A program made the translations under genes and the position numbers. The notes under the pieces were generated by a model. That model made no database searches. It was given only the letters and a program-made list of their open reading frames with translations, and was not told where the DNA came from. From positions 1-64,000 of the IMG/VR virus record IMGVR_UViG_3300020577_008200: a DNA stretch of 64,000 nt. One strand, given 5' to 3'. Shown in pieces: positions 24,122-44,116 of this stretch; position 1 is the first letter of the stretch; each line of letters begins with the position of its first letter. This DNA comes from a virus (lineage: Duplodnaviria; Caudoviricetes).

Positions 24122-24535
24122 TTAAAATGGTGGAGGTGCCTCAGTGCTTTGAATATTTTTTTGTGGAGTGGTTTTGGCTTTTGGTTGAGTTTTTGCTGGT
24201 GGAGCATTATTAGTAGTATCATTTTCGTCAACAGCTTTTCTGTCTACGAACCAAAAATCACTAACGGTAATCTTGTGCTTACTTCTTTTGTCACCATCTT
24301 TTTCCCATGTTTCAAACTTAAGTTTACCTTCTAGTAAGATTCTAGAACCTTTTTTGAAATATTTTTCTAATACTTCAGCACGATTACCCCAACATTCACA
24401 ATCAATGAACATTGTTTCTTCTTTATCCTTATATTTTTCATTTACAGCAACACCAAACTTTGCTACTTTATGTTCCCCAACATCTTTTACCTCAACGTCT
24501 CTAGTTAGATTACCCATTATCGTACTCTTATTCAT
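24122..24535 (-). CDS. ssb: Single-stranded DNA-binding protein (likely start MNKSTIMG at 24535)
   Basis: MNK..IMGNLTRD, F.VAVNE, FIDCECWG, KGSRILLEGKL....WEK OB fold; C-terminal PPF tail. Confidence 0.95.
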   Translation of the reverse strand: MNKSTIMGNLTRDVEVKDVGEHKVAKFGVAVNEKYKDKEETMFIDCECWGNRAEVLEKYFKKGSRILLEGKLKFETWEKDGDKRSKHKITVSDFWFVDRKAVDENDTTNNAPPAKTQPKAKTTPQKNIQSTEAPPPF

Positions 24536-24579
24536 AATAACCCTTTTTATAATTGTGTAGATAGCTTTAGCTACCAAAT

Positions 24580-24783
24580 TTATTCTTCAATCTCAAATAC
24601 ATTAAGTTCTACTTCTGCTCCAGTGACTATATTAACAGTATCACTCAGGTCATCTTTAAACCATACTTTGATTTTCTTTTCTAATTCTTCTATTGCTGTT
24701 GGGGTTGGTAAAATTTTATGTTCTAACGAGCCAATTTTCCAATGTCTGATTTTCATATTTTCCCTAATTAAATTTGTGAACAT
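24580..24783 (-). CDS. Hypothetical protein
   Basis: 67 aa ORF packed between dnaE-C and ssb. Confidence 0.55.
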   Translation of the reverse strand: MFTNLIRENMKIRHWKIGSLEHKILPTPTAIEELEKKIKVWFKDDLSDTVNIVTGAEVELNVFEIEE

Positions 24784-25373
24784 TTCTTAACTTCAAAACT
24801 TCCCTTTTTACCGAATTCACCTTCTAGTAAAACGTTGTTACCTTCTGACAAGATATCTTTATATTTTTTATAAGTATCCGAAAATACACATACATCAGAT
24901 AGAGAGCAGGTAGCATCTGATACTACCAGAAAAGCCATCTTTTGTCCAGTATAATTTCCTATTTTCTTAATAGTAGTTACTCTGACAGCTTCAATAGTTA
25001 CTGCTAAAACTAACCTTCCTTTTCTTCCAGATAAGGCTTCTTTACAACTACAGTTAGCTTCGCTAATATCACAACCATCAACAATAGAACAATTAATAGC
25101 TGTGCCTAAATATTTTTCTTCATTATAAGCAATCATACTTGGAGTATCATTCATACTAATTATTGGAGAAGTAAGTAATTTTACTTTGTCTTCCAAAATA
25201 GCTACCCGTTTTATATTAGCGCATCCACCTCCATCTTTTTTAGGTTTGGCGGCAGCTTCAATAGCATGTACTATTTCAGTAAATTTTGAAGAAGATTCTT
25301 TAATCCATTCTTGCTCTTTATCTGTTAAATCTGAGTAGGCTTTATATTCTTCTAACATTCTAGTTCTTGACAC
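24768..25373 (-). CDS. dnaE: DNA polymerase III alpha, C-terminal fragment (OB-fold)
   Basis: EEKYLG, G.....KMAFLVVSD....LSDVCVFSDTYKKY..IL.EGN.VLLEG; own AAGGAG RBS and GTG start. Confidence 0.85.
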   Translation of the reverse strand: MSRTRMLEEYKAYSDLTDKEQEWIKESSSKFTEIVHAIEAAAKPKKDGGGCANIKRVAILEDKVKLLTSPIISMNDTPSMIAYNEEKYLGTAINCSIVDGCDISEANCSCKEALSGRKGRLVLAVTIEAVRVTTIKKIGNYTGQKMAFLVVSDATCSLSDVCVFSDTYKKYKDILSEGNNVLLEGEFGKKGSFEVKKCSQI

Positions 25374-25388
25374 AACTATCTCCTTTTA

Positions 25389-26483
25389 TTAACTTTTGGA
25401 AAAGTTGTCCATGTAACTAAGTGCCCCAACCTCTATTAATCTCTCCATAGTGGTACTACTGACCTGTGGAGACACAAAAACTAAAAATTCATACCAAGAT
25501 AAGTCTTCTATTTTTTTACCATAAGTTTCTTCAGCATTTATAATTGCTTGTCTAAGTTTATCAACTTGAGCATCTCCAATTCCTTTTATATCAGCTAGGC
25601 CAAATTGTACTTTAACCCCATCTGTAAAGAAATGTTTTTTCATACTTCTGAGGTCTGGAGTTAAAACTTCTACATCCATTAATTTTGCTTCATTAATTAA
25701 CTCTCGTATTTCCTGTAAAGGGTCTTGTTTTTCTTGAGCGTAACGTAAATAAGATGTAAAAAATTGAATCGGAAAGTGGGCTTTACAGTAAGCTGTCCAG
25801 TAACTATTCATAGCATACGAATAAGCGTGGCTAGCATTGAACGAATATCTTTGACTTTCTTTAATCCAACCGAAGATTTCTTTAGCCTGTTCCTCGTTGA
25901 CAACATTCGCTTTCTTAACACCTTCAAAGAACATGACTTCCACTTTTGCCATTTCTTCTGGTAACTTTTTACCAATAGCTTTACGAAGCATGTCTGCTTC
26001 TTGCATTGTAAAGTTAGCTAAATCTCTAACTATAAACATAGCTTGTTCTTGATAAACTAAAATTCCATAAGTCTTTTCTAGAATTGGTTTTAAGGAAGGA
26101 TGAAGATATTCTACTTCTACCATTCTATTTTTTCTTTGGCAATATAATTCTGTAAGACTCAGCCCGGTTTTAGCGTCAATACTTTTAGTACAACCGGGTC
26201 TTAAAATAGCTCCTAAATCAGCTAGGTGTTGTATACATTCAGGTTTTAATTTTTTAACCCACTGTCTACCAGTTCCTTCTAGTTGGAATACTCCTTTGAC
26301 TAAACCTTTACCTAACATATCCCAAACATACATGCATTCTAAAGGGACTTCCGCAATATTAAATTTATGAAGTGGCGGAACTATTTGATTCTTTTCATAG
26401 TATTCTAATGTTTTACCCTTTTTCGCTATCATCTCTTCATTGATATTAAACTTACATCCGCACTTCATTTGATAAATCTTCAT
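25389..26483 (-). CDS. dnaE: DNA polymerase III alpha, middle fragment (fingers + HhH)
   Basis: GVFQLEG, LGAILRPG, TYGILVYQEQAM, EADMLRKAIGKK, YSFNASHAYSY, FGLADIKGIG. Confidence 0.95.
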   Translation of the reverse strand: MKIYQMKCGCKFNINEEMIAKKGKTLEYYEKNQIVPPLHKFNIAEVPLECMYVWDMLGKGLVKGVFQLEGTGRQWVKKLKPECIQHLADLGAILRPGCTKSIDAKTGLSLTELYCQRKNRMVEVEYLHPSLKPILEKTYGILVYQEQAMFIVRDLANFTMQEADMLRKAIGKKLPEEMAKVEVMFFEGVKKANVVNEEQAKEIFGWIKESQRYSFNASHAYSYAMNSYWTAYCKAHFPIQFFTSYLRYAQEKQDPLQEIRELINEAKLMDVEVLTPDLRSMKKHFFTDGVKVQFGLADIKGIGDAQVDKLRQAIINAEETYGKKIEDLSWYEFLVFVSPQVSSTTMERLIEVGALSYMDNFSKS

Positions 26484-27207
26484 GATAAGTCTCGCCGTAT
26501 AAGTTTTTCAGATGTCGAAATGGATAGCCATTGGGATAGTGCTTGGGCCATTCAATGGGTAATTGAGGTAATGGTTGAAAGGCTACGCCATCACTTATTA
26601 ATTGATTACTTATTTTCAATGCTTCATCTTTATGAGAAGCGGAATCAGTTAGATATTTATACGGTTCATCTACGAATTTTTGAATCTCAGGATTAAATTT
26701 TCTACAATAATGTGAGCCAATATAAGTTTCTGTTCTAATTGTTGTGCTTTCATTATACTGAAAATCCTTGACTTTGTCAAGGGGAATATCAAATAATTCC
26801 CACATATCTTTTGAATTACCAATAAACATGTGGTCCCGAGGATGAAATGGGAAACGGGGATAAATGCTAAGAGTTAGTATATTATTATTAATACGTTCAG
26901 TACAATAGAAATACCAGATTTTATCTAAAGGTACAAACATATCGCTTCGTATTTTCATTACTACTGAGGAATGAATTTTATTCATACCGGCGAGCGAAGT
27001 TACTAATTGAAGATTACGATTTCCTAAACCGGGGTTGGAAGGATAATCTGATAGAACTAATTCATCTATATCCCAATCTCTATAGAGAACTTCATTCTCT
27101 TTCCAGGTAGAAAAAATTACTCTATTTACAAAATCGTAGTCTCTATATCTATTAATGAATTCTCTTGTGTAAGAATATACTGGACCTTGTATTAAAACGT
27201 CTATCAT
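26452..27207 (-). CDS. WavE-family lipopolysaccharide synthesis protein (likely start MIDV at 27207)
   Basis: VLIQGP, VIFSTW, P.NPG..NRNLQLVTSLAG, MKIRSD, FHPRDHMFIG motifs. Confidence 0.75.
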   Translation of the reverse strand: MIDVLIQGPVYSYTREFINRYRDYDFVNRVIFSTWKENEVLYRDWDIDELVLSDYPSNPGLGNRNLQLVTSLAGMNKIHSSVVMKIRSDMFVPLDKIWYFYCTERINNNILTLSIYPRFPFHPRDHMFIGNSKDMWELFDIPLDKVKDFQYNESTTIRTETYIGSHYCRKFNPEIQKFVDEPYKYLTDSASHKDEALKISNQLISDGVAFQPLPQLPIEWPKHYPNGYPFRHLKNLYGETYHEDLSNEVRM

Positions 27208-28250
27208 TTGATTCTCACGAAAGTGGTACATTTAGATAAGGATTTAATATCGTCTGTTCCAATATAGGTACAAGTAGAACGTAATCCGCCCAATATTTGA
27301 TTGATTATATTTTTAACTGGACCCTTGTATTGTATTTCTACAGATTTACCTTCTGGGGAACGATGTTCTGCAACCCCACCATAATATTTATCCATACATT
27401 CTTTACTGCTCATTCCATAAACACGAAGAGATTTTTTAACATCTTTATAATTTTCGTAACCGTTTCCAGGTAGTCCGTCATGAACTGGTTCATAAGTCCA
27501 TAATCCTTCACATTCATCAGTTCCACTTAACATATTTCCTAGCATCACAAAATCTGCACCGGCTCCAAAAGCTTTAGCAATATCTCCAGATGTTTTACAT
27601 CCACCGTCACTACAAACATGTCCTCCACAACCATGTGCAACATCACTACATTCAATAATAGCACTTAATTGAGGATAACCAACTCCGGTTACTTTACGAG
27701 TTTCACAGAATGCTCCCGGTCCAATTCCAATTTTAACTATATCCGCCCCATTTACTAACAATTCTTGTGTCATGTCTCCAGTAGCTACGTTACCAGCCAT
27801 AATAATAGCTTTAGGAAATGATTTTCTTACTTCTTGAACTCTATTAACAAAATATTTAGTATATCCATTAGCTGCGTCAATACAAATTCTATGGATGTAA
27901 GTCTCATCTTTCATATATTTTAGTTTTTCAAAATCACCATCTGTGATACCAATTGTACAGAAAGCTTGATTAATTGGATTCTGTTTGAAAAAACTAATTA
28001 ATTGTTCCGGCTTGTAGAACTTATGAAGACATGTATATAAACCTTGTTCAGATAATGCTTTTTCCATTGCTATTGTGCCAGTAGTATCTAAATTTGCAGC
28101 AATGATTGGAATACCGCTCATAGTACATTTTGCGTGTAGCATTTTAAAAGTTCTATATAGATTAACATCCGCTCTACTTCCAGTTTCACTCCTCTTAGGA
28201 CAGATTAAAACATCATCAAAATCTAACTTAACTTCGTTTATAATTCTCAA
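27204..28250 (-). CDS. guaC: GMP reductase
   Basis: KLDFDDVLICPKRS, IIAANLDTTGT, CIDAANGY, AGNVAT, KIGIGPG..CETR, YPQLSA, SDGGC, YRSPEGK-like and GGLRSTCTYIG. Confidence 0.95.
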   Translation of the reverse strand: MRIINEVKLDFDDVLICPKRSETGSRADVNLYRTFKMLHAKCTMSGIPIIAANLDTTGTIAMEKALSEQGLYTCLHKFYKPEQLISFFKQNPINQAFCTIGITDGDFEKLKYMKDETYIHRICIDAANGYTKYFVNRVQEVRKSFPKAIIMAGNVATGDMTQELLVNGADIVKIGIGPGAFCETRKVTGVGYPQLSAIIECSDVAHGCGGHVCSDGGCKTSGDIAKAFGAGADFVMLGNMLSGTDECEGLWTYEPVHDGLPGNGYENYKDVKKSLRVYGMSSKECMDKYYGGVAEHRSPEGKSVEIQYKGPVKNIINQILGGLRSTCTYIGTDDIKSLSKCTTFVRIK

Positions 28251-28713
28251 TTAATTCTCCGCCAAATGTACTAGTATATTGTTCAGCATCTTCTGAACTT
28301 GGCATCCAGTCTTTAATTTCTTGTAAGGCTTCTGGTGAAATCCATAAATCTTTGTATTTATCCCCTGAATAATATTTATCACCCGGAACAGATGGAGTTT
28401 TTATAACTATAAGTTCACTATCTTCTACAAATTCTATTCCATAAACTTGATTTGGTTCTGTGACCCAGATAAAACCTTGTTTAGCTTCAATAATCCACTG
28501 TTTACCATCAACTATTTTCATAGTGTCAAATTTTATTTTACCTTTGATTAGATAGTTAATTTCAGTCATTTTTTTATGGAAGTGCCCATCACTTTTATCG
28601 CCAGCTTTATGTTTCAAATGTCCAACTTCAAAAGCTTCGCTTATAAATGCGGAAGGATAAAAATTACCAATGAACCAGCCATTTTTCATCCAGTCAATAC
28701 TGTATAAAAGCAT
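28228..28713 (-). CDS. Cupin-fold protein of sugar-nucleotide loci
   Basis: GWFIGNF.P, H.H....EINY.I.G, IKTPSVPGDKY. Confidence 0.7.
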   Translation of the reverse strand: MLLYSIDWMKNGWFIGNFYPSAFISEAFEVGHLKHKAGDKSDGHFHKKMTEINYLIKGKIKFDTMKIVDGKQWIIEAKQGFIWVTEPNQVYGIEFVEDSELIVIKTPSVPGDKYYSGDKYKDLWISPEALQEIKDWMPSSEDAEQYTSTFGGELIENYKRS

Positions 28714-28731
28714 AACTATTCTCTTTTGTTT

Positions 28732-29916
28732 TTAGTTTCCATTTTTCATTAAACGACATTGATGCCGGCCTCCATCGAAAGTTTCTTCGGTTAGTGAATA
28801 GATAACATCTTCTAATTTTCTAGTTTCCGGAAAATCATGTGCAGATAGAGCAAAGAAGTTGGCCGCATTATGTTTGATAGCATAACCAGCGTGATATTCA
28901 TCTTGAACCAAAGCAGAGCGAATTCCTGGTATTTTATTAGCACAAATATTAATACCCTGTCCGCTACGACAAATTCCTAAACCAAAAAATGGTCTATTAT
29001 TAAGGACAAACTTTGCAGTAGTTTCTACATAAGTATTATAATCACAATCTTTATCATTATAACAACCAAAGTCTATATAAGGAATTTTATTTTTTTCCAT
29101 TATTTTCTTGATTTCATCTTTTACTTTAAAACCAGAATGGTCACTACATAACGCAAAAGCTCGCGGTTTAGCTAGATATTTGAAAGATACTTCCTCAAAA
29201 AATTTGAATTCTTCGGGCGTCCCCATAATATGAATTTTGTCGATTTTTCGATATTCGACCTCATCTGAATTTGTTATTCTGTTATAGAGAGGAGCAATAT
29301 GGGCTTCACCACTAGGATTATATTGGCTTTTTACTGATACACTATTCAGATACGCCCATGCATGTTCAGCAAATAATTTGCAACTTTGAAAACAGTAGAC
29401 TCCGACATTAGCTAAATTACTAGGTCTAACCACTTTTTCCCAAACAGAAGAAACTAAATTTTTATCATTTATATCTATATAACTATAGTTAGGACTATTA
29501 GATTTAAAAACTAAAGTTTGACCCGCAGTTTTAAAGTCATAGTTATTTGGTTTAAAGATTGGTGTAAAAGAAATATCGGGACAAAGTATAATTAAAGGAT
29601 TTTCATCATCCGGATTAATGCCAGCTAACACGGTTTCTATTGCCCCTTTAGTTTCTCGGTGAAGCTTAGTAACACCAATATCTTTACCGAACTTATATTG
29701 CAACCATTCAAACATACCGAAATCCCGGATATGTTCTTCTCTTACTACAAATTCTATTTCGCATTCTGTAGTATCAATAGATTGCATAGACCATTCTAAA
29801 ATACTTCTATCTCCACAAATCAACATAGGTTTGGGAAGTTTAAAACCTCCGGCAGTCATGCGAGAGCCGCGACCAGCTAGAGGGACTACTAACTTGTACG
29901 GCTTAGATGTTCTCAT
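28732..29916 (-). CDS. Nucleotidyltransferase fused to RpiB/LacAB sugar-phosphate isomerase
   Basis: N-terminal VPLAGRGSRM...GFKLPKPM, MGTPEE; C-terminal SDHSGF..K, D.DY, GICRSGQG..I.ANK.PGIRSA, HNAAN, F.GGRH.CR. Confidence 0.9.
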   Translation of the reverse strand: MRTSKPYKLVVPLAGRGSRMTAGGFKLPKPMLICGDRSILEWSMQSIDTTECEIEFVVREEHIRDFGMFEWLQYKFGKDIGVTKLHRETKGAIETVLAGINPDDENPLIILCPDISFTPIFKPNNYDFKTAGQTLVFKSNSPNYSYIDINDKNLVSSVWEKVVRPSNLANVGVYCFQSCKLFAEHAWAYLNSVSVKSQYNPSGEAHIAPLYNRITNSDEVEYRKIDKIHIMGTPEEFKFFEEVSFKYLAKPRAFALCSDHSGFKVKDEIKKIMEKNKIPYIDFGCYNDKDCDYNTYVETTAKFVLNNRPFFGLGICRSGQGINICANKIPGIRSALVQDEYHAGYAIKHNAANFFALSAHDFPETRKLEDVIYSLTEETFDGGRHQCRLMKNGN

Positions 29917-30655
29917 TGACTTCCTTTAACCATTGTAATACTTTAGTATGCGCATACTCTTGACTATTTTTGATATAAGATTCCGGATTATTCATTCTAT
30001 GTTCAATGAAGTAACCAGCAAACCTATCACCAGCGCCCACCGTAAAAAGAAAATTTTCTTTTTGATGCCAATAATGACTAACATTTATCCCGTCTGACCC
30101 GCAAGTATCACCAAAGAGATGAGACACGTCTTTGATTTTTTTGGGTTGGCAGGCCACACTTCCCTGCGAAGAATGCTCAACGAGCCATCCTGAAAAGTTG
30201 GAACTTGGTTCAAACAAAAAATGTTTTAAAAGGTTTTGATTATCTTCATTACTTAAAAAAACATAATCGCAACAAGCAATATTATTGTAAGCTTTTGATA
30301 AATCAAATGTAAAGTAATGTTTAGTTAAATCACAAGACTTTATCTTTGCTTCTACTTTTGTAAAGTCAATATTAATCAAATTAGCATAAGCTAAATGAAC
30401 CCAACCGTAACCAGCTTTACTATACGGACCTTCTACTGGACATTGATATCCTTTATCAATAGTTGATTCTGTCCCATGATGAGTTATTAGAATATTAGCG
30501 GTATTCTTTTTTAGAGCAATTTTAGTACCCTGTTTAATATTATGAATTCCACCATCTTGAATTATTCTTTTATATTTTCCATCATAATTAATGATATCAA
30601 TAATATCTAAGAATTCATTACCAATAACACAAAGCTTATCTTCATTAAGATTCAT
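29903..30655 (-). CDS. PfkB/ribokinase-family carbohydrate kinase (divergent)
   Basis: C-terminal TVGAGDRFAGYF anion-hole motif; DYVFLSNED. Confidence 0.7.
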   Translation of the reverse strand: MNLNEDKLCVIGNEFLDIIDIINYDGKYKRIIQDGGIHNIKQGTKIALKKNTANILITHHGTESTIDKGYQCPVEGPYSKAGYGWVHLAYANLINIDFTKVEAKIKSCDLTKHYFTFDLSKAYNNIACCDYVFLSNEDNQNLLKHFLFEPSSNFSGWLVEHSSQGSVACQPKKIKDVSHLFGDTCGSDGINVSHYWHQKENFLFTVGAGDRFAGYFIEHRMNNPESYIKNSQEYAHTKVLQWLKEVNENI

Positions 30656-31589
30656 AAGGGTATCTCTGAATTATTTTATCTTTGACTTGTTCATAGAGGG
30701 CGTCAATTACTCCATCTCCACCATTTCGGTTAAGAATAGTAGCATTTTGTTTAACAATACTAGAGGCATTTTGAGGACAGTAGGGATGACCAACTACATT
30801 TAAAGCTGATAAATCATAGTAATCATCTCCCACATAAGCTATATCTTCTAATTTAAACTTGTATTCTTCTGCTATTTTCTCTATAGCAATAGCCTTATCT
30901 AACTGTTTAGAATAATTTCTAGCATTGAAGAATGGTAAACTTCGACTTAGAGCCATCCCGGAGTTGAAGTTGTCCCCGCTAAGTAATAGAACTGGTATAC
31001 CAGCGGACTTAAACCGTTTAATTGCAGTAAAGTCTCTATCACAAAATTCTTTAGATAATACATTGTGTTCACTATCATAAGTTTTTCTTCCGTTAGTTAG
31101 GACTCCATCTACATCTAGAATGAGAAGTTTGAAGGCTTCTCCTATTTTTTCGTTGTCATATTCAAGATTTGGATAATTCGTAATTATTCCATAAGCTTCA
31201 CAAGTTGTTGACCAATCTAAATCTACAACAATATCTTTATTTCCAAAATCACGACATTTACCAGAATTTTGATGCCAGATTCGGTAACCTTGAGAGGTAA
31301 TACTCACATCATCTAAACTTTGAAAGAAGGAATGTATTTGTTTATATCTGAGTAAATATTCAAAAGTCTGCCATGTTTTAGCATGTGCTAAAATACGACT
31401 GTCTTCTAAAAATTCTCTAACAATTTCATCTTTTGGCTCATCATGACCTAAGTAAAGTTTACCATCTTTTAGGCGAATGTCAAGTTCTACATTATATCCT
31501 TTGTTAAAACAGTTCCATGTTGCTATTTTAGTATTTTCTAAATTAATATTAGAGCCGTTTTGATTAGCCCTGTGTGCATAAACTTTCAT
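30645..31589 (-). CDS. GDPD-like domain fused to KdsC/YrbI-like HAD phosphatase
   Basis: AHRAN.NG....EN...VELDI...LGHDEP N-terminus; LILDVDGVLTNG, RD..AI, LLSGD, AYVGDDYYD, GGDGVI C-terminus. Confidence 0.85.
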   Translation of the reverse strand: MKVYAHRANQNGSNINLENTKIATWNCFNKGYNVELDIRLKDGKLYLGHDEPKDEIVREFLEDSRILAHAKTWQTFEYLLRYKQIHSFFQSLDDVSITSQGYRIWHQNSGKCRDFGNKDIVVDLDWSTTCEAYGIITNYPNLEYDNEKIGEAFKLLILDVDGVLTNGRKTYDSEHNVLSKEFCDRDFTAIKRFKSAGIPVLLLSGDNFNSGMALSRSLPFFNARNYSKQLDKAIAIEKIAEEYKFKLEDIAYVGDDYYDLSALNVVGHPYCPQNASSIVKQNATILNRNGGDGVIDALYEQVKDKIIQRYPYES

Positions 31590-32556
31590 TTATCACCTTT
31601 CCATAATCTTGGTATAAATTTTCCCAACTCCACTCTTTATAGAGAGGTTCTAAAGGAACCGTTCCATTTTGGATTATAGTTTTTAGTGTATTTTTACATA
31701 AACAAATACTTGGTTCAACCTTATGAACATGATGAAACATACCATCATTACTCACCGCAATAGGGCGACCGGCAGCAATCGCCCAATCTATTACGCTGGA
31801 ACAAGCATTATGTGCCACACTATTGCGATACATAAAAACATTAGCTGTATTTTGAGCCAACCAGTATAATAATTGTTGAGAATCTAAATATTCGTGAGAA
31901 AATTCTAATTTAATTCCGTGTTTAACTGGAATTTTTTCTAGCCTATTTCTCATAGAATAGGCGTAAGACCCAGAACTATCTACAATAGTATTCAATGGAA
32001 GACGAATTCTAACTGTAGCCTCATCAAATTCTTCGTTAACCTTATGAACTACCTCATCAAAACCTTTGTGATTAAAACCAAAGCCAAAAGTCCCGATAGT
32101 ATTTTCTAGAACTGGAGCTATTTTATAGTAACCGTTTTCATCTCTAATCATATTTTCAGGATAGAAAAACGGTATAGGTCTTCCTACTTTGTAATCAATT
32201 CCATTAGAGATATAGGTTGGGTCAGGATGTAATATTACAGTATTATTAAATATCTTTCTTTCGTCATGCATGATAACAGCAGAAGGCAGTTTTGTGGTGG
32301 TTATTACATCGTTATTTAACCAGCTCATAGTTAATGGATGGTGGTTGTAGATTACAAAACAGTAAGACTTATTTTTTAATCTTTCATATAAATCTTCTGG
32401 TTTAGACGCTTCTACACATTCGTAATAGTAAAAATCTTGTTCATTATCAATCAGTTTATTATAGGATATTTTAAATAATATTCTTCCAGTCCAATAACCG
32501 AATTCATAAACGCCACATTGGGCTTTGGGCTGAACTACAAAAAGAACTTTTTTCAT
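31564..32556 (-). CDS. Glycosyltransferase-like protein (GT-B; likely start MKKV at 32556)
   Basis: CGVYEFG, IGTFGFGFNHKGF, SSVIDWAIAAGRPIAVS, WSWENL. Confidence 0.7.
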   Translation of the reverse strand: MKKVLFVVQPKAQCGVYEFGYWTGRILFKISYNKLIDNEQDFYYYECVEASKPEDLYERLKNKSYCFVIYNHHPLTMSWLNNDVITTTKLPSAVIMHDERKIFNNTVILHPDPTYISNGIDYKVGRPIPFFYPENMIRDENGYYKIAPVLENTIGTFGFGFNHKGFDEVVHKVNEEFDEATVRIRLPLNTIVDSSGSYAYSMRNRLEKIPVKHGIKLEFSHEYLDSQQLLYWLAQNTANVFMYRNSVAHNACSSVIDWAIAAGRPIAVSNDGMFHHVHKVEPSICLCKNTLKTIIQNGTVPLEPLYKEWSWENLYQDYGKVINESLCTQG

Positions 32557-32648
32557 TACAGAATCCAAATAAGAATACAAACTATTATTACAAATATTAA
32601 ATATACTAAATCATTTTTGCAGTTACATTTATGATTACATTGACTCAT
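32556..32648 (-). CDS. 30-aa membrane peptide (not in ORF track): MSQCNHKCNCKNDLVYLIFVIIVCILIWIL
   Basis: Translated by hand; fills the gap, and its TAA overlaps the next ATG (TAATG). Confidence 0.5.
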   Translation of the reverse strand: MSQCNHKCNCKNDLVYLIFVIIVCILIWIL

Positions 32649-32654
32649 TTTTTC

Positions 32655-34883
32655 TCACATTATTGGTGTAAAATATGGTTCTTCTTTACTATCGTCCCAA
32701 GACCAATATCCAGGTTCCGGCATTGCTACTAAGAATTTCCCACCTCTTTTGAGATAGTCAACATGTCTTTTTAAAAAGAAATTAGTAAAGTGCCACGGGA
32801 GTATGAGTAAGAAATCCGGCTCTTTAATAAATCCCTCAGTTTCACTAATGATTGGTATATCAGAACCAATAGCGTATTTACCAAATTTATCTTTGCTAAC
32901 TTCTAATATATAAGGAATATCTTTGTTAGTTAAGTTACACATTTGTAAAAATGTGTTACCTTTAGTAGATGCTCCAAGTCCGAAAACTGTTTTACCACAT
33001 TTGTTTATTTCATTAATAAAATTAGTAGTAACTTGGTTAATTTTTGCTATTTTTTCATTAAACTTTTCCCAATATCCGAGTTTGAATATTTCTTTCTCGT
33101 CTTCCATTGCCTTCAATGCAGTAAATGTCACTCCTCGTTGGGCACCAATATGTTGAATGTAAAGTCTGACGGAAGCTCCGTTGACATCATTGTATTCCAA
33201 ATCAAAGATTTCCATATCATGTTTAGCTAGTAATTTTTTCATTACTTCCAACGTGTAATATCCTATATGCTCAAAGCATATATTATCATAGGCATTAGTT
33301 TTAATAGTACACATCAAGTCTGTCATTTGAACAACCCAAATCCCGCTCTTACATAAGTATTTTTTAATACTTCTGATAAATTTATCCGGGTCTTCTAAGT
33401 CATAAAACATAGCAATAGAAGTGATAATATCAAAGGGCAAAGAATAATGTATACTATCGTCAAAGTAATTATTGATAAATATATCGCAATTGTTGATAGC
33501 GTACCCAGCGAGGTTATTAGCCGGGTCGTAACCTGTCTTAAAGAATTTATCTGGGTAGAACGATAAGAGCGTGCCATCGTTACAATTATGAACTCCTATA
33601 TTGTTTGCTATATAAGCGTTTTCATCTTCAACTTCAAAGTTGTAAACATTAATATTTTCTACTTCTTCAAATGAATTATTTTTAACTCTAACAAAAATAA
33701 AATTATCATTTGTTTTATACAGACATCTATCTTTATCTTCTTCTATAATTCCTGGTTCTAATAAAGATATTTTTTGTCCACTTATAGTTAACCTATAGGA
33801 GTCATTAACGAAATGTATATTCGTTGATATTCCTAACTGGATTAATAATTGTTTTATTCCATAAATTAGTTCTTTTGATACTGATGTTACTATGTATTGA
33901 TAACCACCACTAGTCATATATCTGAGATGACCATCTCCCCTCATATAATGTTTAATTAATTCAATTTTACATTCATCTGACCAATTATAAATTTCTTTAT
34001 TTATGAATTTATGATGAGAATATTCCCCAAATAATCTTTTAACTTCTGTGGCAAAATCTTTAGAATAAATTCTTAGGTCAATAGTATTTTTTTCAGGACG
34101 AATAGATTTTGTTGTATTTAAACCTAATCTTTTTGATGCATCCTCTAATTGTTTAATATAATGTTCTTCATGAATACCTAAGCATAAATTAATTCCACAA
34201 ATTAACGGTTTATGGGAATGAATATATGAGCCTTCAGCTAAAAACCAGCCATATATTAATAATCTATCTTTATCTATTTGCAAATTTTTGCTAGACTTTA
34301 TTCTTGGAATTGAAACATATTCTCCTTTTTTGAAATCTTTAATTTGCTTATATTCTAATTTATCATTAAGAATAGGATGTTCTTCAGTTGCAGATAAGTT
34401 AAATCCATGCATAGTAGATAAATTATAAATTTTACCAGTATATTTTCTAGTAAAAGTTTTTAAAACTTTACATTCTTTATTATTTGGAGTTAAGACATAG
34501 TCTCCCTCTTTAATATCTTGAATATTTTTTGTAGAATAATCTGACATTCTAATTTTAGTATCAGATGGAAAACATCCAATATCCATTACCCGTTTATACG
34601 ACTGAGGACTTTTAGCTAGTGACTTCGTCACTATATCTTGGAGAGCAGTTACCATCGTATTATTCAAACCGGAACGATACCAGTATTCTCTGTACATATT
34701 ATCAGGTTCTAACACGTTTGTCAACTGGACAAATTCGCATTTGGGACACTGAGCTAAGGCTAGTTCTTCTGTATCAAATTTTACTTTATCTTCTGGTTTG
34801 TCTAAAAATAAAGAAGGATAAATATCTCCTAAATTTACCACAGTATTTTCATATTCATTTTTACATAAAAAACATTTTGTCAT
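32655..34883 (-). CDS. NDP-hexose C-methyltransferase (Methyltransf_13/14 type), intein-interrupted (likely start MTKC at 34883)
   Basis: C..C Zn finger, L.QC.KC.FVQL, YWYRSGLN, DIG/CNDGTLL, AMFYDL, YDNIC.EH.GYY, GLGASTKGNTFL, LILPWHF. Confidence 0.9.
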   Translation of the reverse strand: MTKCFLCKNEYENTVVNLGDIYPSLFLDKPEDKVKFDTEELALAQCPKCEFVQLTNVLEPDNMYREYWYRSGLNNTMVTALQDIVTKSLAKSPQSYKRVMDIGCFPSDTKIRMSDYSTKNIQDIKEGDYVLTPNNKECKVLKTFTRKYTGKIYNLSTMHGFNLSATEEHPILNDKLEYKQIKDFKKGEYVSIPRIKSSKNLQIDKDRLLIYGWFLAEGSYIHSHKPLICGINLCLGIHEEHYIKQLEDASKRLGLNTTKSIRPEKNTIDLRIYSKDFATEVKRLFGEYSHHKFINKEIYNWSDECKIELIKHYMRGDGHLRYMTSGGYQYIVTSVSKELIYGIKQLLIQLGISTNIHFVNDSYRLTISGQKISLLEPGIIEEDKDRCLYKTNDNFIFVRVKNNSFEEVENINVYNFEVEDENAYIANNIGVHNCNDGTLLSFYPDKFFKTGYDPANNLAGYAINNCDIFINNYFDDSIHYSLPFDIITSIAMFYDLEDPDKFIRSIKKYLCKSGIWVVQMTDLMCTIKTNAYDNICFEHIGYYTLEVMKKLLAKHDMEIFDLEYNDVNGASVRLYIQHIGAQRGVTFTALKAMEDEKEIFKLGYWEKFNEKIAKINQVTTNFINEINKCGKTVFGLGASTKGNTFLQMCNLTNKDIPYILEVSKDKFGKYAIGSDIPIISETEGFIKEPDFLLILPWHFTNFFLKRHVDYLKRGGKFLVAMPEPGYWSWDDSKEEPYFTPIM
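33585..34574 (-). mobile_element. Intein (330 aa) with LAGLIDADG homing endonuclease
   Basis: Starts CFPSDTKIRMSD, block B ATEEHP, LAGLIDADG-like YGWFLAEG and YMRGDG, ends VYNFEV...YIANNIGVHN followed by +1 Cys. Confidence 0.95.
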
Positions 34884-35929
34884 TAGACTTTCCTTAATAG
34901 TTCTTTCCAATCGTTTAAGTTTCGTTCAAAAGAAAAGTGTTTAATAGCGGCCTTGCGACCGTTTTCAGAAATACTTTTAGCTAATGTTTTATCTTTAATT
35001 AGCAGGAGAAGCATCTCACGCAATTCCCTAATATCATCGCTCCAGAAACCTGAGACACCATTTTCAATAAATTTGTGTGCTTCAAAGGTAGGCATATCTT
35101 CTCGCGGACTTCCTATCTTTGGACCTACTGAAACTAGTGGAATACCAGTAGATAGAGCTTCCATAAAAGAATATGTAAATGGGCCGGGTTTAGTGCAAGT
35201 AGAGAAGTATACTCCGGCTCTCTTTCTTAGATTATGAAGTTCCGTAGGAGTTAAATTTCCAGCGGAAAATTCAATATCTTCATTCTCGAAGCCGCCTACT
35301 ATTCTATTCATTCCCTGAGTAACTAAATTATATTCCGGCCAAGCTGCATGTTGACCCCGTTTCTTCATCCATTTATTAATAGTGAGAACGTAATCATCTT
35401 CGCCGGTCCAACCTTTGTATAATTCAGTATCTACGAACGGACGAATAATAGCGTCGTTTTTTGCTAAGCGATTGATATATCTTTCAGTTGGTGAGTATGC
35501 TACAGTCTTAGTATATTTAAGATATTTACTAAAATGCATTTGAGGTTGACCAATATATCTCATGATAATTGGTTTACCTTTAATAGATTCCCAATTCAAA
35601 GTTAAATTTTCTTCAAAGTGAGCAATAACAACTAAATCAAAAAGTTGAGCAAAATCTTTTTTAACTCTATTATAGTAAGCCCCGAGAACTTCATTAATAG
35701 TTAAAGTGTCAAACTTTTTAACTAATCCTTCATAATTGTGGCCAGCTTTATATTTTTCTAATAATTCTTCATCAAACTTAATATTCAAAGCCCCATCTTT
35801 AGTTGGATGTAGAGGTTTTCGAGGGTCTATATAGTGCCCAATAGAAAAAACTTGGTGACCAAGCTTATCTAATACTGTTAACTCGTCCGCTTCTAGCGTT
35901 TCATGGCAACTTAGGTATAGAATCTTCAT
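34883..35929 (-). CDS. GT4 glycosyltransferase
   Basis: AGVYFSTC..P.P...SFMEALSTGIPLVS, FIENGVSGF, ISENGRKAAIKHFS. Confidence 0.85.
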   Translation of the reverse strand: MKILYLSCHETLEADELTVLDKLGHQVFSIGHYIDPRKPLHPTKDGALNIKFDEELLEKYKAGHNYEGLVKKFDTLTINEVLGAYYNRVKKDFAQLFDLVVIAHFEENLTLNWESIKGKPIIMRYIGQPQMHFSKYLKYTKTVAYSPTERYINRLAKNDAIIRPFVDTELYKGWTGEDDYVLTINKWMKKRGQHAAWPEYNLVTQGMNRIVGGFENEDIEFSAGNLTPTELHNLRKRAGVYFSTCTKPGPFTYSFMEALSTGIPLVSVGPKIGSPREDMPTFEAHKFIENGVSGFWSDDIRELREMLLLLIKDKTLAKSISENGRKAAIKHFSFERNLNDWKELLRKV

Positions 35930-36276
35930 TTAATTTCCATTCCAGTTACCGGGTCATATCTAGTAACGTCAGTTCCATCTGGGTCGTAATAATCAAAAAA
36001 TTCTGTAATATAACAGTCTGTTAAAGATGTGAGTCTATTATAATAAGTCGCTGGAATATTAATATAATCTCCATCTTTCAGAACTTTGTTGAAAGCATTA
36101 TAACATAGAGAACTGTCTCCATGATAGACTACAAGTTCTCCTTTGTCAACCATAATTATCTTATTTTTCTTTTCATTTCGATGCCAACTTGTGGAGTAGC
36201 CCTTTTTAATAAAAAGTTTTTTCCCTAATTTACCGATATGTTCTTCCCATCCCCAGGGTTTAGACTTGAAACTCAT
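35926..36276 (-). CDS. Cupin (mannose-6-phosphate isomerase type II C-terminal-like)
   Basis: KPWGWE, STSWHR, V.KGEL, L..GD.I.IP. Confidence 0.7.
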   Translation of the reverse strand: MSFKSKPWGWEEHIGKLGKKLFIKKGYSTSWHRNEKKNKIIMVDKGELVVYHGDSSLCYNAFNKVLKDGDYINIPATYYNRLTSLTDCYITEFFDYYDPDGTDVTRYDPVTGMEIK

Positions 36277-36914
36277 TTAAAACAATCCTTGAATAATGTT
36301 TTTGCTGAAATGCTACGATGGAACTTTAGGAATCTAGATATAATCATAGCTGTATGTTGCGTATCAACTAGAGCATCGTGAGCATTATCTTTACTAATTC
36401 CAAGAAAGTCTCTTACCGTATCTAGTTTATAGTTCTCTGGCTCAGCCATATTTTCAAACCAAAGAAAACAAATATCCATTAGGTCAATCATATCTCTACG
36501 GTGAAATAGAATTGGTTTATTATTTTTGTCTAATGGTCCATATAGATTACACATTCGTTCTACTATATGTTTATCAAAATTCTTAATATTGAAGCCAGCG
36601 GAAATTGGGGCACCAAAAGGAGTTTTACTTTTGTTATATTTATTGACATATCTGGTAAAAGCTTCCCAAGCCTCCTTTTGAGAAATACCGTCTCTCTCTA
36701 CGACCTCTCTTTTAATTTTATTTACCGCCAGAGCTTCATCTTGAACATTTGTCCAATTAGTAGGCTTTATATAAGTCTTGAATTCAGAAGAAGGTTTTAT
36801 TTCTAAAGTCCGAGCATCTAATACAATAGCCGCTAATTGCAGTGGTTCGCATGTAAAAGGGTCTGCTGAACCAGTTTCAAAATCATACACGACAACGTCG
36901 TTCTTATTTAACAT
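36273..36914 (-). CDS. DEDDh 3'-5' exonuclease (DnaQ-like proofreader)
   Basis: YDFETG, AGFNI..FD, YKLDT, AHDALVD. Confidence 0.9.
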   Translation of the reverse strand: MLNKNDVVVYDFETGSADPFTCEPLQLAAIVLDARTLEIKPSSEFKTYIKPTNWTNVQDEALAVNKIKREVVERDGISQKEAWEAFTRYVNKYNKSKTPFGAPISAGFNIKNFDKHIVERMCNLYGPLDKNNKPILFHRRDMIDLMDICFLWFENMAEPENYKLDTVRDFLGISKDNAHDALVDTQHTAMIISRFLKFHRSISAKTLFKDCFK

Positions 36915-37340
36915 TCAATTTTTCTCCGTAGATTCAACCACCGGAGAGGCTGAAGGATTTGGATTTTCTGGTTGTGTGGTGCCTCTCTGCAAATCTTCCG
37001 AAGCAGTTCTATCAACCAGCGTCAGTTTGGAACTGCCATCAGGAAGGTTTTCAATGGACAATAGTTTATTATAATCTTTATCTGTCACAATGTCAAATAG
37101 AATTTTATCTAATAAATATTCACCATTATGTCCTAATGTAATAGCAGCTAGAATAGCATATTGTTGAACTTGCAGATTTTTTAATTCTTGTTCTTTTCTT
37201 GCTAGTTGGTCATCTTTGATTATCAGATACTCATCTCTTAATTGACACAACCTAAAAATAGTAATAAAATTTTGTTCTAAATCTTTAAGCTTCGCTTTTT
37301 TAATTTTATATTGATTGTATTTTCTAGATATCCAACTCAT
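36915..37340 (-). CDS. Hypothetical protein
   Basis: 141 aa coiled-coil-like ORF abutting neighbours. Confidence 0.6.
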   Translation of the reverse strand: MSWISRKYNQYKIKKAKLKDLEQNFITIFRLCQLRDEYLIIKDDQLARKEQELKNLQVQQYAILAAITLGHNGEYLLDKILFDIVTDKDYNKLLSIENLPDGSSKLTLVDRTASEDLQRGTTQPENPNPSASPVVESTEKN

Positions 37341-37343
37341 GTC

Positions 37344-37742
37344 TTATCCTTCAATTATATTTGATATTTTTTTAAAAAGCGTGAGCGTTTCTTCTTCTAA
37401 CTTCTTTCCCCGAATTAATAAGTGATTAGCTGCATACCACGGGATAAGAATTTTATTTCCAAGAACGAAGTTCTTTCCTAAGTAATCTTTCATCTTGAAA
37501 CTTTTAGGTAGTTTCAAAAGTAGTCCGGTAGGAATGGCTCCTAAGCTAATTATAACGTGGAAGTTAGCATTTTGCAACCTATTTTCTAAAGTATCATCCC
37601 ATTTAGCAAAGCAGAAGGCTCCATCATGTATTCCAGATTTCAGTAGTAATTTCTTAACATAATCACCTTCTCTAAGATTAAAGGAAACTTCACCTATTTT
37701 TTGAGTTAAAGGAACGTTACTAACTACGCATATTTCTTTCAT
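37344..37742 (-). CDS. Degenerate uracil-DNA glycosylase-like (family 4 fold) protein
   Basis: IISLGAIPTGLLL...LG.....LIPWYAANHLL matches the UDG4 I..LG..A...LL...RG...PTYHP..LL region, but catalytic residues are absent. Confidence 0.5.
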   Translation of the reverse strand: MKEICVVSNVPLTQKIGEVSFNLREGDYVKKLLLKSGIHDGAFCFAKWDDTLENRLQNANFHVIISLGAIPTGLLLKLPKSFKMKDYLGKNFVLGNKILIPWYAANHLLIRGKKLEEETLTLFKKISNIIEG

Positions 37743-37766
37743 ATGTATTCCTTCAGGAATAGTTTA

Positions 37767-39794
37767 CTATTCCCCATTTATCTCTCCTGTTTCAAGTAAT
37801 TCTTGCACACCCATAATTTTATCTAAACAGCCCAAACTTAGAATGTCAAATTTAACTAATCCCATCGCTTCTAAATCATTCATTTCCAAACCAGCAATCA
37901 TCAGATTATCAGATTTTTTATCGTAGACCATTGGGCAAACTTCAGCTAAAGTTTCCGGCGAAATTATTATACCGGAAGCATGGGTGCCTTGAGAACGTTT
38001 AGTTCCTTCTAGTCTAATAGCTTGTTCAAATAGTTTGGCTAGTGGCCCGTCCAAACTTCCATCTTCTTTCATAACACACCACTGACTTAGCTCTTTAGCA
38101 TTATTTTCTAAAGCCCAACCAATGATACTAGCTTCACCAGTTTCTTCTCTCATTAACTGCAATTGGTCTATAATTTCAGCTTCTTGTGGAATACATTCTG
38201 TAATTCTATTCATTTCCTCAAAACTACAAGCTTCATGAACTCGAAGCACATCTTTTAAAGCTCCTCTACCTTGCATACGGCTGAAGGTAATCATTTCAGC
38301 TACTTTGTCTGAACCCCATTTTTTTCTAACATATTCTTTAACTTGAGGACGTTTCATAATAGGAAAATCAGAATCAATGTCTGGTAAAGCTATTCTACCA
38401 GGAGAGTTTCTACCGGAATTGTAAAAACGTTCCCAGAGTAAACCATACTTAATTGGGTCTACCACTTTATCAGTGATACCAATTAAAGAAGAAACCATAC
38501 TTCCACTACCAGACCCGCGACCGGGAGACATTAAACAGCCTAAATCTTTTTTAGCGTAAGAACAATAATCTTGAACAATTAAAAAATAAGTTGCTAAGAA
38601 ACCTTCAGTAGATTTAATAACGTCTAATTCTTTTTTAACTCTATCTCCATATTCTTTATGTTGTTCTTTGGGTATATCTTTAACTATAATATCTTTCCAG
38701 CCTTTAATAACTAACTCTCTTAAATATTCATCCGGAGACATTTCTTTAGGACAGGGAAATTTAGGTAAAGAAGGTTTATTAAAGATATCATACTCTTCGC
38801 ACATTTCAGCTATATTGAGAGTATTTTGAATTTCATTAGCTTCGTACAGACCTTCTAATTCTGTGTATTCCGGAACATGATAATTATTAGATTTGAAGAA
38901 ACGTCCTAAATTAACATTATCTTCCTGACTTAGCTTATCTTTAACTTTAGAAAGAGTAGTTTCCATATTATTACAGATAATTACTCTTTGGTCAATAGCA
39001 TCTTCCTTAGAAGAGTAATGACTATTAGCAGATGCTACGCAGTTAGCACCAGTCTTTTTAGAGAGATATCTCATAGCATCAGCTAGAATTTTAGTCGCTG
39101 GTAGATTCTTACTATCTAATAGTTCTACCGTAAGATAAAAATTCTCTTTACCAAATATATCTTGGTATTTTCCAATTAACTCTATAGAATTTTTAATCCA
39201 ATTTTCATCTACTAGCATTTTAGCTTCATCATAACTTTTAGCTTCGTAGGTGTATTTAGATTTTTCTCCAAAGATTGTATTAGCTATATCGGAGCCTAAG
39301 TGCCCGCTAAATGCAATTAAATCTTGATAGCCGTTAAATTTTCCTAAATCTAGGCGAGGTTTTTTATAAAAATTATTTGGGTTATTAGATTTTGAAGTTA
39401 AAGAAATGAGAGATTTCCAACCATTTTTATTTTTGGCTAGAACACACATATTAGAAGTTTTAACATTATCTTTGTCTTGGATTTGAGACGGCTTTGTCGA
39501 GAGGGAAAATTCGCAACCAATAATGGGTTTAATTGGATTTTTCTTGTATTCCATACAACCATTATTAACACGACATTTTCCTTTACCGCTTTCATGCTCA
39601 TTCTTCTGTCTTCCACAGGCGCAAGCCTCTTTCATAGCTTTCATGAAAGGGACGACTGAGGCCACATTAGCATATTCGGTAATGGCTGCCGATTTGTAAC
39701 CTAGTTTGACTGTACGCTCGGCAATAGCTGATGGCTTGCTTAGACCAATTTGTAGTGAGTAGTGAGAGTGGCAATGGAGATTAACAAAGTTCAT
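37767..39794 (-). CDS. dnaE: DNA polymerase III alpha, N-terminal fragment (PHP + palm/thumb)
   Basis: LHCHSHYS, PIIGCE, PGRGSGSGSMV, LLWERF, LPDIDSDF, GTHASGII, LVKFDILSL; ends shortly after the third catalytic Asp. Confidence 0.95.
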   Translation of the reverse strand: MNFVNLHCHSHYSLQIGLSKPSAIAERTVKLGYKSAAITEYANVASVVPFMKAMKEACACGRQKNEHESGKGKCRVNNGCMEYKKNPIKPIIGCEFSLSTKPSQIQDKDNVKTSNMCVLAKNKNGWKSLISLTSKSNNPNNFYKKPRLDLGKFNGYQDLIAFSGHLGSDIANTIFGEKSKYTYEAKSYDEAKMLVDENWIKNSIELIGKYQDIFGKENFYLTVELLDSKNLPATKILADAMRYLSKKTGANCVASANSHYSSKEDAIDQRVIICNNMETTLSKVKDKLSQEDNVNLGRFFKSNNYHVPEYTELEGLYEANEIQNTLNIAEMCEEYDIFNKPSLPKFPCPKEMSPDEYLRELVIKGWKDIIVKDIPKEQHKEYGDRVKKELDVIKSTEGFLATYFLIVQDYCSYAKKDLGCLMSPGRGSGSGSMVSSLIGITDKVVDPIKYGLLWERFYNSGRNSPGRIALPDIDSDFPIMKRPQVKEYVRKKWGSDKVAEMITFSRMQGRGALKDVLRVHEACSFEEMNRITECIPQEAEIIDQLQLMREETGEASIIGWALENNAKELSQWCVMKEDGSLDGPLAKLFEQAIRLEGTKRSQGTHASGIIISPETLAEVCPMVYDKKSDNLMIAGLEMNDLEAMGLVKFDILSLGCLDKIMGVQELLETGEINGE

Positions 39795-39960: not shown

Positions 39961-40130
39961 TATTCTTCCTCACACTCCGGACAACACATAGTCCCACCAT
40001 CTTCATCATCGTACACCCAACCGTTTCCTTGACACATATCACAGTAACATTCATTAGCGACTTCGTCGCTATTCTCTATATCTATTTTGTCGTCTTTATC
40101 ATCGTCCATTGCTAGTGCTACTTCTGGCAT
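39960..40130 (-). CDS. Small acidic Zn-finger protein (not in ORF track)
   Basis: ...ECYCDMCQGNGWVYDDEDGGTMCCPECEEE, DnaJ-type CxxCxGxG motif. Confidence 0.65.
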   Translation of the reverse strand: MPEVALAMDDDKDDKIDIENSDEVANECYCDMCQGNGWVYDDEDGGTMCCPECEEE

Positions 40131-40588
40131 TGTAATTCTCCTCTTATCTTCATAATAAGTTTTCCTAAATTATTCTTTCCTACTCCAATTGGACATTGTC
40201 CCCACCACACATCATGCCACTGGTTGCCCTCTATAATCTCTACATTACCAGTATCAATTAGTTTTTTATGTAGTTTTGGATTTAACTCTTTAGAATATTT
40301 TTGGCGAAGACAATATTCCATTACTGTAAGTTTAATATCTTCCCAATCTTCTCTAATATCTTTTTTACGATTTTTATAAAAACGTTTAGCTTCCGTAGGA
40401 GTCCCACGAGATATCATATCTCGAAAAACCATATTTTTAGTTTTGGCGGCTTGGTAAGCATGTTCCACAGTTGGGTATTTATTATAGTCTGGTGAAGGTA
40501 GCTCTATAGGAGTTTCACAGTCATGAAAATTTGATAGCCAAGAATGCTCACCACGAAATTTGATGATATTTCCTAGTTCATCAGTCAT
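40118..40588 (-). CDS. NADAR (YbiA-like) family protein
   Basis: WLSNFH, YPTVEHAYQAAK, WEDIKLTVM...LRQK, LIDTG...IIEGN.W.D.WWG, G.N.LGKLIMKIR. Confidence 0.9.
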   Translation of the reverse strand: MTDELGNIIKFRGEHSWLSNFHDCETPIELPSPDYNKYPTVEHAYQAAKTKNMVFRDMISRGTPTEAKRFYKNRKKDIREDWEDIKLTVMEYCLRQKYSKELNPKLHKKLIDTGNVEIIEGNQWHDVWWGQCPIGVGKNNLGKLIMKIRGELQCQK

Positions 40589-41286: not shown

Positions 41287-41290
41287 AGTT

Positions 41291-41401: not shown

Positions 41402-41403
41402 AT

Positions 41404-42697: not shown

Positions 42698-42888
42698 TTA
42701 TTCCTTATTAATTTTCTCTAATAATCTATCTGTTAACATTCTCATTCCTATATCGTTCATTCTCTTAATCATTAGTTTAAATTCTATTTCATCCCAAACT
42801 AATTGACGAAGCTTTCTAGCAGATTCTTCAGTAGTCATATATCTTTCCAGTTTCGTTTATAAGCAAACATTGGAATATAATTATTCAT

Positions 42889-44093: not shown

Positions 44094-44116
44094 CCTATTT
44101 TTTTGGAGATTTTCAA

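Follow-up and report, generated by a model that had tools for sequence, protein, structure and literature searches.

A DNA Polymerase III Alpha Sequence Divided Among Three Intein-Free Genes in a Lineage of Uncultured Phages

A 64,000-nt stretch of DNA from an uncultured tailed phage (hereafter the window; the first 64 kb of the 73,036-bp IMG/VR viral contig IMGVR_UViG_3300020577_008200, with an estimated completeness of ~48%) encodes DnaE, the alpha subunit of DNA polymerase III (Pol III), in three separate intein-free genes. We call these genes dnaE-N, dnaE-M, and dnaE-C, and their products pieces 1, 2, and 3 (Table 1). To our knowledge, C-family polymerases, which replicate all bacterial chromosomes, have been studied as single ~130-kDa chains. 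We consider it very probable that the three genes encode subunits of one working replicative polymerase, which are translated separately and assemble non-covalently together with the exonuclease DnaQ. In such an enzyme dnaE-N would supply all three catalytic aspartates; binding of nucleotide and template by the fingers, and of DNA by the HhH domain, would fall to dnaE-M, and dnaE-C would contribute the OB fold, while DnaQ would join the complex as proofreading exonuclease. The assignment of function is a strong comparative inference, and the physical assembly of the three pieces is likewise inferred.

Table 1. Features of the divided dnaE region (positions in the window)
Feature	Position	Strand	Evidence
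dnaE-N (piece 1): PHP, palm, and thumb; 675 aa; ends TAG TAA	37767..39794	-	PF02811, PF07733
Perfect TTGACA-N17-TATAAT site, ~150 nt upstream of dnaQ	37068..37096	-	
dnaQ-type DEDDh 3'-5' exonuclease, 213 aa	36273..36914	-	PF00929, E 6.3e-18
Cargo island, ~9.8 kb: WavE-like, GuaC/IMPDH, NTP-transferase-RpiB fusion, HAD, intein-bearing C-methyltransferase, GT1, and cupin genes	26484..36272	-	Pfam
Perfect TTGACA-N17-TATAAT site, ~270 nt upstream of dnaE-M	26752..26780	-	
dnaE-M (piece 2): CxC N-terminal module, fingers, and HhH; 364 aa	25389..26483	-	PF17657, PF14579
Region coding for the split-specific N-terminal extension of piece 2 (residues 1-37, C8-G-C10)	26373..26483	-	
Piece 2/piece 3 junction: second TAA, AAGGAG Shine-Dalgarno sequence, spacer	25374..25388	-	Direct reading
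dnaE-C (piece 3): linker helices and OB fold; 201 aa; GTG start	24768..25373	-	phrog_405 929-1070
SSB, conserved downstream neighbor	24122..24577	-	PF00436, E 3e-24; same position in 108 loci

Domains, Motifs, and Junctions of the Three Genes

A preliminary description made from the letters alone had proposed that the three genes together cover a full Pol III alpha, and this was borne out by Pfam domains and by a phage DnaE profile. The three minus-strand open reading frames (ORFs) lie at exactly the positions that it had given. Piece 1 matches the PHP domain (PF02811, E 3.4e-25) and the Pol III alpha palm (PF07733, E 1.7e-61), piece 2 matches the fingers (PF17657, E 3.8e-39) and the HhH domain (PF14579, 27.6 bits with a cut-off of 25.6), and piece 3 matches the OB fold (PF01336) at 23.3 bits, which is under the 27-bit cut-off. 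The phage DnaE profile phrog_405 is tiled without overlap by piece 1 (42-614), piece 2 (622-925), and piece 3 (929-1070). The PHP, palm, fingers, and HhH-then-OB regions of a C-family DnaE are all present, but they are spread over three ORFs, each with its own start and stop, instead of forming a single polypeptide.

Piece 1 aligns by sequence with residues 256-572 of the Escherichia coli alpha subunit. Its PDIDSD and KFD motifs are intact, its catalytic aspartates D472, D474, and D650 show no variation across an alignment of 24 sequences, and 25 residues lie between KFD and the C-terminus. The fingers motifs GVFQLEG, RPGC, YQEQ, LRKAIGKK, and FNASH are all intact in piece 2, whose AlphaFold model (predicted local distance difference test, pLDDT, of 86) matches E. 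coli alpha residues 572-897 over residues 33-364. Compared with solved DnaE structures (2hnh, 5lew, 2hpi, and others), this model gives Z scores of 21-24 and root-mean-square deviations of 3.0-4.8 Å over ~305-312 residues. By sequence and by fold, the first cut falls at the start of the fingers, just past the last catalytic aspartate, and the second falls at the end of the HhH domain. Piece 3 shows 29-46% identity to the C-terminal, OB-bearing part of fused forms, and its top Foldseek matches are all OB folds (E ~1e-3), with a pLDDT of only 60 for the stand-alone model; a PDB sequence search with a profile of the OB piece returned nothing meaningful. Piece 3 stops directly after the OB fold, apparently with no tau-binding C-terminal domain, and no QLxLF-like motif was seen in it.

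The PHP ligand motifs TDHG and PDAHY, near-invariant in relatives, read TEYA and ANSHY in piece 1 (same 24-sequence alignment). The PHP site of this phage is thus probably degenerate and inactive, and proofreading therefore probably depends on DnaQ. The PHP domain of piece 1 also has a 30-residue cysteine-rich insert of the form CxC...C...C (residues 57-86; window 39537-39626, minus strand), which is missing in 22 of 23 aligned relatives; L048 has an insert at this place without cysteines.

Direct reading of the junctions and motifs agrees with the preliminary claim that every piece has its own start and intact motifs. From piece 2 to piece 3 the sequence runs through two tandem TAA codons, an AAGGAG, a 6-nt spacer, and a GTG start, in one frame throughout. 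The ATG of dnaE-M lies inside the upstream WavE-like gene (32-nt overlap), and this start is backed by alignments of homologs. Recoding of stop codons was considered and ruled out, because TAA (39 genes), TGA (19), and TAG (7) all serve as stops in the window.

Covalent rejoining of the pieces after expression, through cryptic protein or RNA trans-splicing, read-through, or bypass, would give one mature chain, and it has counterparts elsewhere: cyanobacterial and metagenomic dnaE products are joined by split inteins (PMC2677866), and members of the phage clade to which the window belongs carry a split intein between FNK and SHS (L194) or cis-inteins. The N-terminal extension of piece 2 is also about the size of an intein C-fragment, and pieces 2 and 3 share a frame in the window. 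The breaks themselves, however, are intein-free and FNASH is intact, as the preliminary description had stated. Pfam finds no intein or Hint domain in any of the three pieces, although it detects the one in a methyltransferase elsewhere in the window, and a second positive control comes from the split intein of L194; the N-intein on the upstream piece and C-intein on the downstream piece that mark a split-intein DnaE are both absent. In unsplit relatives (1,099-1,157 aa, 44-48% identity) the palm-fingers junction is continuous, and compared with them piece 1 has lost nothing and gained ~4 residues, which leaves no room for an N-intein. The extension of piece 2 does not end in Asn followed by Cys, Ser, or Thr, and it is predicted to form a hairpin and two helices. 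Pieces 2 and 3 are parted by the two tandem stops here and differ in frame in a relative, L173. Rfam detects no intron in the window, nor in an interruption of piece 1 in the relative L021, and 11 kb with 13 genes would be implausible as an intron. No homing endonuclease gene is found at either break, and the gap between pieces 1 and 2 holds dnaQ, two small ORFs of unknown function, and cargo genes. We therefore regard rejoining as very unlikely and favor three separate chains.

Conservation and History of the Two Breaks

A census of IMG/VR and public metagenomes yielded 163 related loci (42-52% identity), of which 145 show both halves of dnaE. The palm-fingers break of the window recurs in 142 of these, and 3 are unsplit. 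The halves are separated by a dnaQ gene of ~230 aa in 141 of the 142 split loci (median gap 866 nt), and the gene order PD-(D/E)XK nuclease, dnaE-N, dnaQ, dnaE-C, SSB, glycosyltransferase recurs in 108-158 loci. Fingers and OB regions form one continuous product (535-600 aa) in all 163 loci. Over 1,600 proteins similar to piece 2 are in the database; among deposited phages identity does not exceed ~35%, and a metagenome scan returned relatives of 40-50% identity only, none of them three-way. The preliminary description had named recurrence of the same breakpoints in related phages as a check, and they do recur, the first in the 142 loci and the second in nine relatives and in L173. It needs one correction here: on these comparisons the two-way split around dnaQ extends well beyond this phage and appears as an ancestral trait of the whole clade.

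The second break is found in a subclade. Proteins closest to piece 2 (48-77% identity) have ~360 aa and end at the same residue as it does, and nine stand-alone OB homologs of piece 3 are known (196-211 aa, 51-68% identity, 64 invariant columns), a start of MSRT[KR]M being common to nearly all stand-alone OB proteins. A fingers-region tree groups 18 of the 19 three-way forms as one clade (support 96) nested within two-way forms; P0028 lies apart. A second three-way genome is available at the DNA level (L173/G008), with identities of 59, 64, and 55% to pieces 1, 2, and 3 of the window. There a WavE homolog immediately precedes piece 2, and piece 1 lies ~10.4 kb upstream. The junction between its pieces 2 and 3 reads TAA-A-ATG, with a shifted frame, at the same amino-acid position as in the window, and this meeting of two unlike junction sequences at one protein position argues that the split is old and maintained. 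Both the HhH-OB break and the ~10-kb cargo island after dnaQ thus appear to be derived but inherited within the subclade. L034 and L149 were examined as further OB-split loci and rejected; each has an in-frame stop near the start and is not three-way.

An assembly or sequencing artefact, in the form of a chimeric contig or false stops, would be conceivable for a metagenomic contig, the more so as some related IMG/VR records look like two concatenated genomes. We give it next to no weight, since the first break is present in more than 140 loci of different samples and the second in about ten independent contigs as well as in L173, with its unlike junction sequence, and since separate starts exist for all three pieces and a separate Shine-Dalgarno sequence for piece 3.

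These distributions suggest a two-step history. An ancestor of a large clade of uncultured aquatic phages (~150-210 kb) would have acquired the palm-fingers break, dnaQ lying between the two parts and the fingers piece gaining a CxC module of ~35 residues, and a subclade would later have broken the gene again after the HhH domain and gained a ~10-kb cargo island downstream of dnaQ. Unsplit forms occur in at least two places in the tree, and in an approximately unbiased (AU) test one clade uniting every split form is not rejected (p 0.198); a single origin followed by re-fusion, or tree error, may explain this pattern.

Is the divided enzyme the replicase? Four relatives rated 100% complete (173-210 kb) have one palm domain, in a frame of split size (635-663 aa), and no family A or family B polymerase, and no other polymerase was found in the 73-kb record. 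An intact dnaE or other replicative polymerase elsewhere, which the preliminary description had named as a result that would speak against it, was thus found neither in the record nor in these relatives. Around the pieces, the window has a replication set comprising SSB, primase, DnaB, RecA, ribonucleotide reductase, and a DnaQ with intact DEDDh motifs. Given that the complete relatives and the record lack another polymerase and that a replication set surrounds the pieces, the split enzyme is most simply read as the replicase of these phages. The opposite view, that the genes are decaying fragments and that replication falls to the host polymerase or to one encoded in the unsequenced half, could draw on the ~48% completeness of the record and on the degenerate PHP metal ligands of piece 1. 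Decay is nonetheless largely refuted and strikes us as barely credible: the catalytic motifs are all intact, the pieces have no frameshifts or internal stops, the breakpoints are kept across sequences 42-77% identical, complete relatives have no other polymerase, and a full replisome gene set surrounds the pieces.

Functional divergence of the pieces is improbable in our judgment, although it deserves a hearing for piece 3. The polymerase would then consist of pieces 1 and 2, and the OB protein would be, for example, a free single-stranded DNA-binding or accessory factor. Some bacterial DnaE3 enzymes lack the OB or the C-terminal domain (PMC3919608), and the OB piece is the most divergent of the three (55% identity to L173 as against 64% for piece 2). 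It also has invariant cysteines specific to the subclade: C51, C101, C110, C156, and C162 do not vary among the stand-alone OB proteins, C108 is nearly invariant (alignment A3), and they are apparently absent from one fused form inspected by eye (L005). These cysteines could form a second metal site or a disulfide set specific to the three-way subclade. The OB gene, on the other hand, always directly follows that of piece 2, with coupled or near-coupled translation, and the N-terminal helices of the OB piece, where invariant residues sit, are predicted to pack on the HhH domain. The conserved break, the lack of any other polymerase, and the conserved OB gene together support the reading of a non-covalent multi-subunit polymerase that the preliminary description had proposed.

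The CxC Extension and Subunit Assembly

Compared with the unsplit relatives, piece 2 has ~35 added N-terminal residues with the consensus Y-x-F-x-C-G-C-K-F. The preliminary description had called this a new N-terminal CGC extension, and the extension proved to be real, conserved, and specific to split forms. C8 and C10 are invariant in 19 homologs, and CxC is found in 113 of 118 split C-terminal pieces and is absent from unsplit forms; the five exceptions begin further downstream, and their starts may be miscalled. A cysteine equivalent to C50 is invariant in 19 aligned short forms and occurs in 5 of 10 displayed unsplit junctions. In the AlphaFold model the extension is among the most confident parts (pLDDT 89-92), forming a beta-hairpin with CxC at its tip and two short helices, and in nearly all alignments it has no counterpart in solved DnaE structures.

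By analogy with the new terminal tails of the split NrdA of phage Aeh1, the CxC module could fold into a cap or clasp, perhaps one that binds metal, and so make up for the missing peptide link. A bolder version, which we hold only tentatively and think rather doubtful, would make the CxC hairpin a metal-dependent clasp that lets a C-family polymerase work as palm, fingers, and OB subunits, and the split gap a tolerated landing site for cargo islands of 2.5-11 kb within the replicase operon. The ligands would then be C8, C10, C50, and a fourth, possibly from another chain.

Multimer modeling, which the preliminary description had recommended for all three chains, was carried out on residues 340-675 of piece 1, piece 2, and piece 3, with each chain given its own alignment and only the contacts of piece 3 scored. 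Piece 3 reached an ipSAE of 0.77 against the other two chains, and the best of 3 controls reached 0.00; the ipSAE mark applied is attained by 58 of 80 solved complexes and by 2 of 110 mismatched pairs. Contact agreement among the three runs was at least 91%, and partner pLDDT was at least 84. In the model, residues 1-37 and 84-94 of piece 3 face residues 256-362 of piece 2, in the HhH domain. The prediction supports binding of piece 3 to piece 2 but falls short of showing it.

Several observations weigh against a working three-subunit replicase. The pass in complex modeling may reflect memory of, or likeness to, solved intact DnaE, and would then not be independent evidence. The assignment of piece 3 as an OB fold is weak by sequence, with a sub-cut-off Pfam match, no PDB sequence match, and a model pLDDT of 60. 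Many census loci are near-duplicates, so that the counts given above overstate the number of independent observations. With the record ~48% complete, a second polymerase could lie in the missing half of the genome of this phage. Finally, no sliding clamp was found in the record or in the complete relatives.

Genomic Setting and Known Split Enzymes

Pieces 1 and 2 are separated by 11,283 nt (26484-37766) with 13 genes, among them guaC/IMPDH, sugar-nucleotide, and glycosyltransferase genes, the DnaQ-type exonuclease, and the intein-bearing methyltransferase. The ~11 kb of glycan and guaC genes in the preliminary description are indeed present, and it had passed over the last two of these. The dnaQ gene belongs to phrog_192 ('DNA polymerase exonuclease subunit'), and its intact DEDDh motifs can be read in the sequence. 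The methyltransferase (32655-34910, minus strand) is a sugar C-methyltransferase with an intein and LAGLIDADG (PF14890, PF14528, and Hint matches). A further correction concerns the origin of the gap: the 11 kb appear to result from a later cargo insertion downstream of dnaQ, common to the subclade. No WavE homolog occurred in the first 169 related loci, and one was found in the same position in L173. Other relatives have 2.5-9 kb of cargo here, including genes for aldehyde dehydrogenase, aminotransferase, ThyX, methyltransferases, and glycosyltransferases; as the cargo differs among relatives, the gap can be seen as a recurrent insertion site, and its 11.3 kb in the window are the largest seen. 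Among the dnaQ/dnaE-C cargo of L044 is a DUF1559 protein bearing an N-methylation motif of the prepilin type (7596-8579). This family is typical of Planctomycetes and may hint at the host of that relative.

The window also has ~6 kb (40118-46181) between the PD-(D/E)XK nuclease and dnaE-N, two genes that abut in relatives. This segment, which includes a NADAR-domain gene and an opposite-strand HNH endonuclease gene (44072-44806), indicates that the replication module has expanded at several points. Promoter-like sites are overall at chance in the 64 kb (74 vs 73.3 expected), and only two stand out, both perfect sigma-70 consensus sites on the coding strand (2 vs 0.02 expected; Table 1). They point to a putative strong promoter of its own for each polymerase gene block. 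In the site upstream of dnaE-M, the -35 element lies within a hairpin with a 7-bp stem.

In the wider clade, dnaE is heavily colonized by mobile elements. P0133, the closest homolog of piece 2 (81% identity), has a ~385-aa cis-intein with LAGLIDADG in the fingers motif, between LRK and AIGKK, and many C-terminal pieces of the clade have one or two inteins, e.g., L177 (1,246-aa frame) and L200. In L194-L197 (about 7600-10600) a clear split intein divides the fingers piece once more, between FNK and SHS, with a 309-aa ORF between the parts; part A runs on from CLSPDS for ~100 aa, and part B ends in AVSN before SHS. This is the 'fractured gene' layout of Dassa et al. (2009), within the same phage clade (PMC2677866). 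Piece 1 is interrupted in L021, L023, and L025 (about 6033-9107) and also in L036, L038, L092, and L198; in L021 a 283-aa LAGLIDADG ORF lies in another frame between two palm halves of the same frame. The intein-bearing relatives serve as internal controls, and an intein-mended dnaE would therefore be obvious. Two records contain two dnaE loci each, ~146 kb apart: IMGVR_UViG_3300024358_000009 (206 kb; L185 and L195) and IMGVR_UViG_3300024509_000007 (221 kb; L187 and L197). Both have one intact C-terminal piece and one split-intein version, which suggests that two related genomes are joined in each, despite the '100% complete' rating.

The nearest known counterpart of the first break is in the cultured Rossellomorea phage phiT1 (PV767480), where an intein-free break lies at the same palm-fingers boundary: gp20 ends shortly past KFDLLGL, and gp18 starts shortly before GVFQLES. 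It differs in having a 49-aa ORF instead of dnaQ between the halves, no CxC, and a fused OB, and it falls outside the clade in the tree. Microbacterium cluster EF phages are mentioned in one sentence as having two genes related to Pol III alpha (PMC7302621). None of the papers found characterizes the split in phiT1 or in cluster EF. In the split-intein dnaE systems of cyanobacteria and of metagenomic 'fractured genes' (Dassa et al., 2009; PMC2677866), dnaE likewise lies in separate genes with others between them. The halves in those systems bear parts of an intein, through which they are ligated to a single chain, unlike the pieces of the window, which have none and keep FNASH intact; the relatives L194-L197 show the true split-intein state, at another site. 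In group 2.2 jumbo phages, a minimal split Pol III alpha is found together with a polymerase of family B (PolB) (Iyer et al., 2021; PMC7824862). As here, the C-family catalytic module comes as separate proteins from distant genes; theirs, however, is a stripped-down core accompanied by PolB, whereas the window has the full set from PHP to OB and neither its record nor the complete relatives have a PolB.

Split enzymes of other families offer a precedent that divided enzymes can work. PolB is active as a non-covalent complex in Aeromonas phages 25 and 44RR (gp43A/43B; PMC2988022) and in PhiKZ (DNAP-N/DNAP-C; PMC13648687), and here too a replicative polymerase lies in separate genes, although it is of family B rather than C, is in two pieces rather than three, and has no exonuclease gene at the split. 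In phage Aeh1, NrdA is split by the homing endonuclease gene mobE, and the new terminal tails are essential for activity (Crona et al., PMC3045599). An essential enzyme split with new peptide segments at the split makes NrdA the best analogue for the CxC extension, with the differences that dnaQ rather than mobE intervenes in dnaE and that the extension is known from sequence and a model. The surveys of bacterial and viral C-family polymerases that we consulted do not describe the present architecture (PMC3919608, PMC4889955, PMC12926913), and in the open-access literature we found no paper on the clade-wide dnaE-N/dnaQ/dnaE-C operon, the CxC module, or a three-piece DnaE.

If the three-subunit reading holds, these phages rely on a naturally divided polymerase, with cuts at two domain boundaries, as the sole replicase of a widespread, uncultured lineage. 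Its palm, fingers, and OB modules, already separable, would lend themselves to studies of how an active site forms across subunits, with the CxC module as a candidate assembly element. The clade also allows a clean comparison of how an essential gene, once broken, is repaired with and without inteins. The finding also bears on annotation, as 'truncated' dnaE genes in viral metagenomes may often be genuine subunits.

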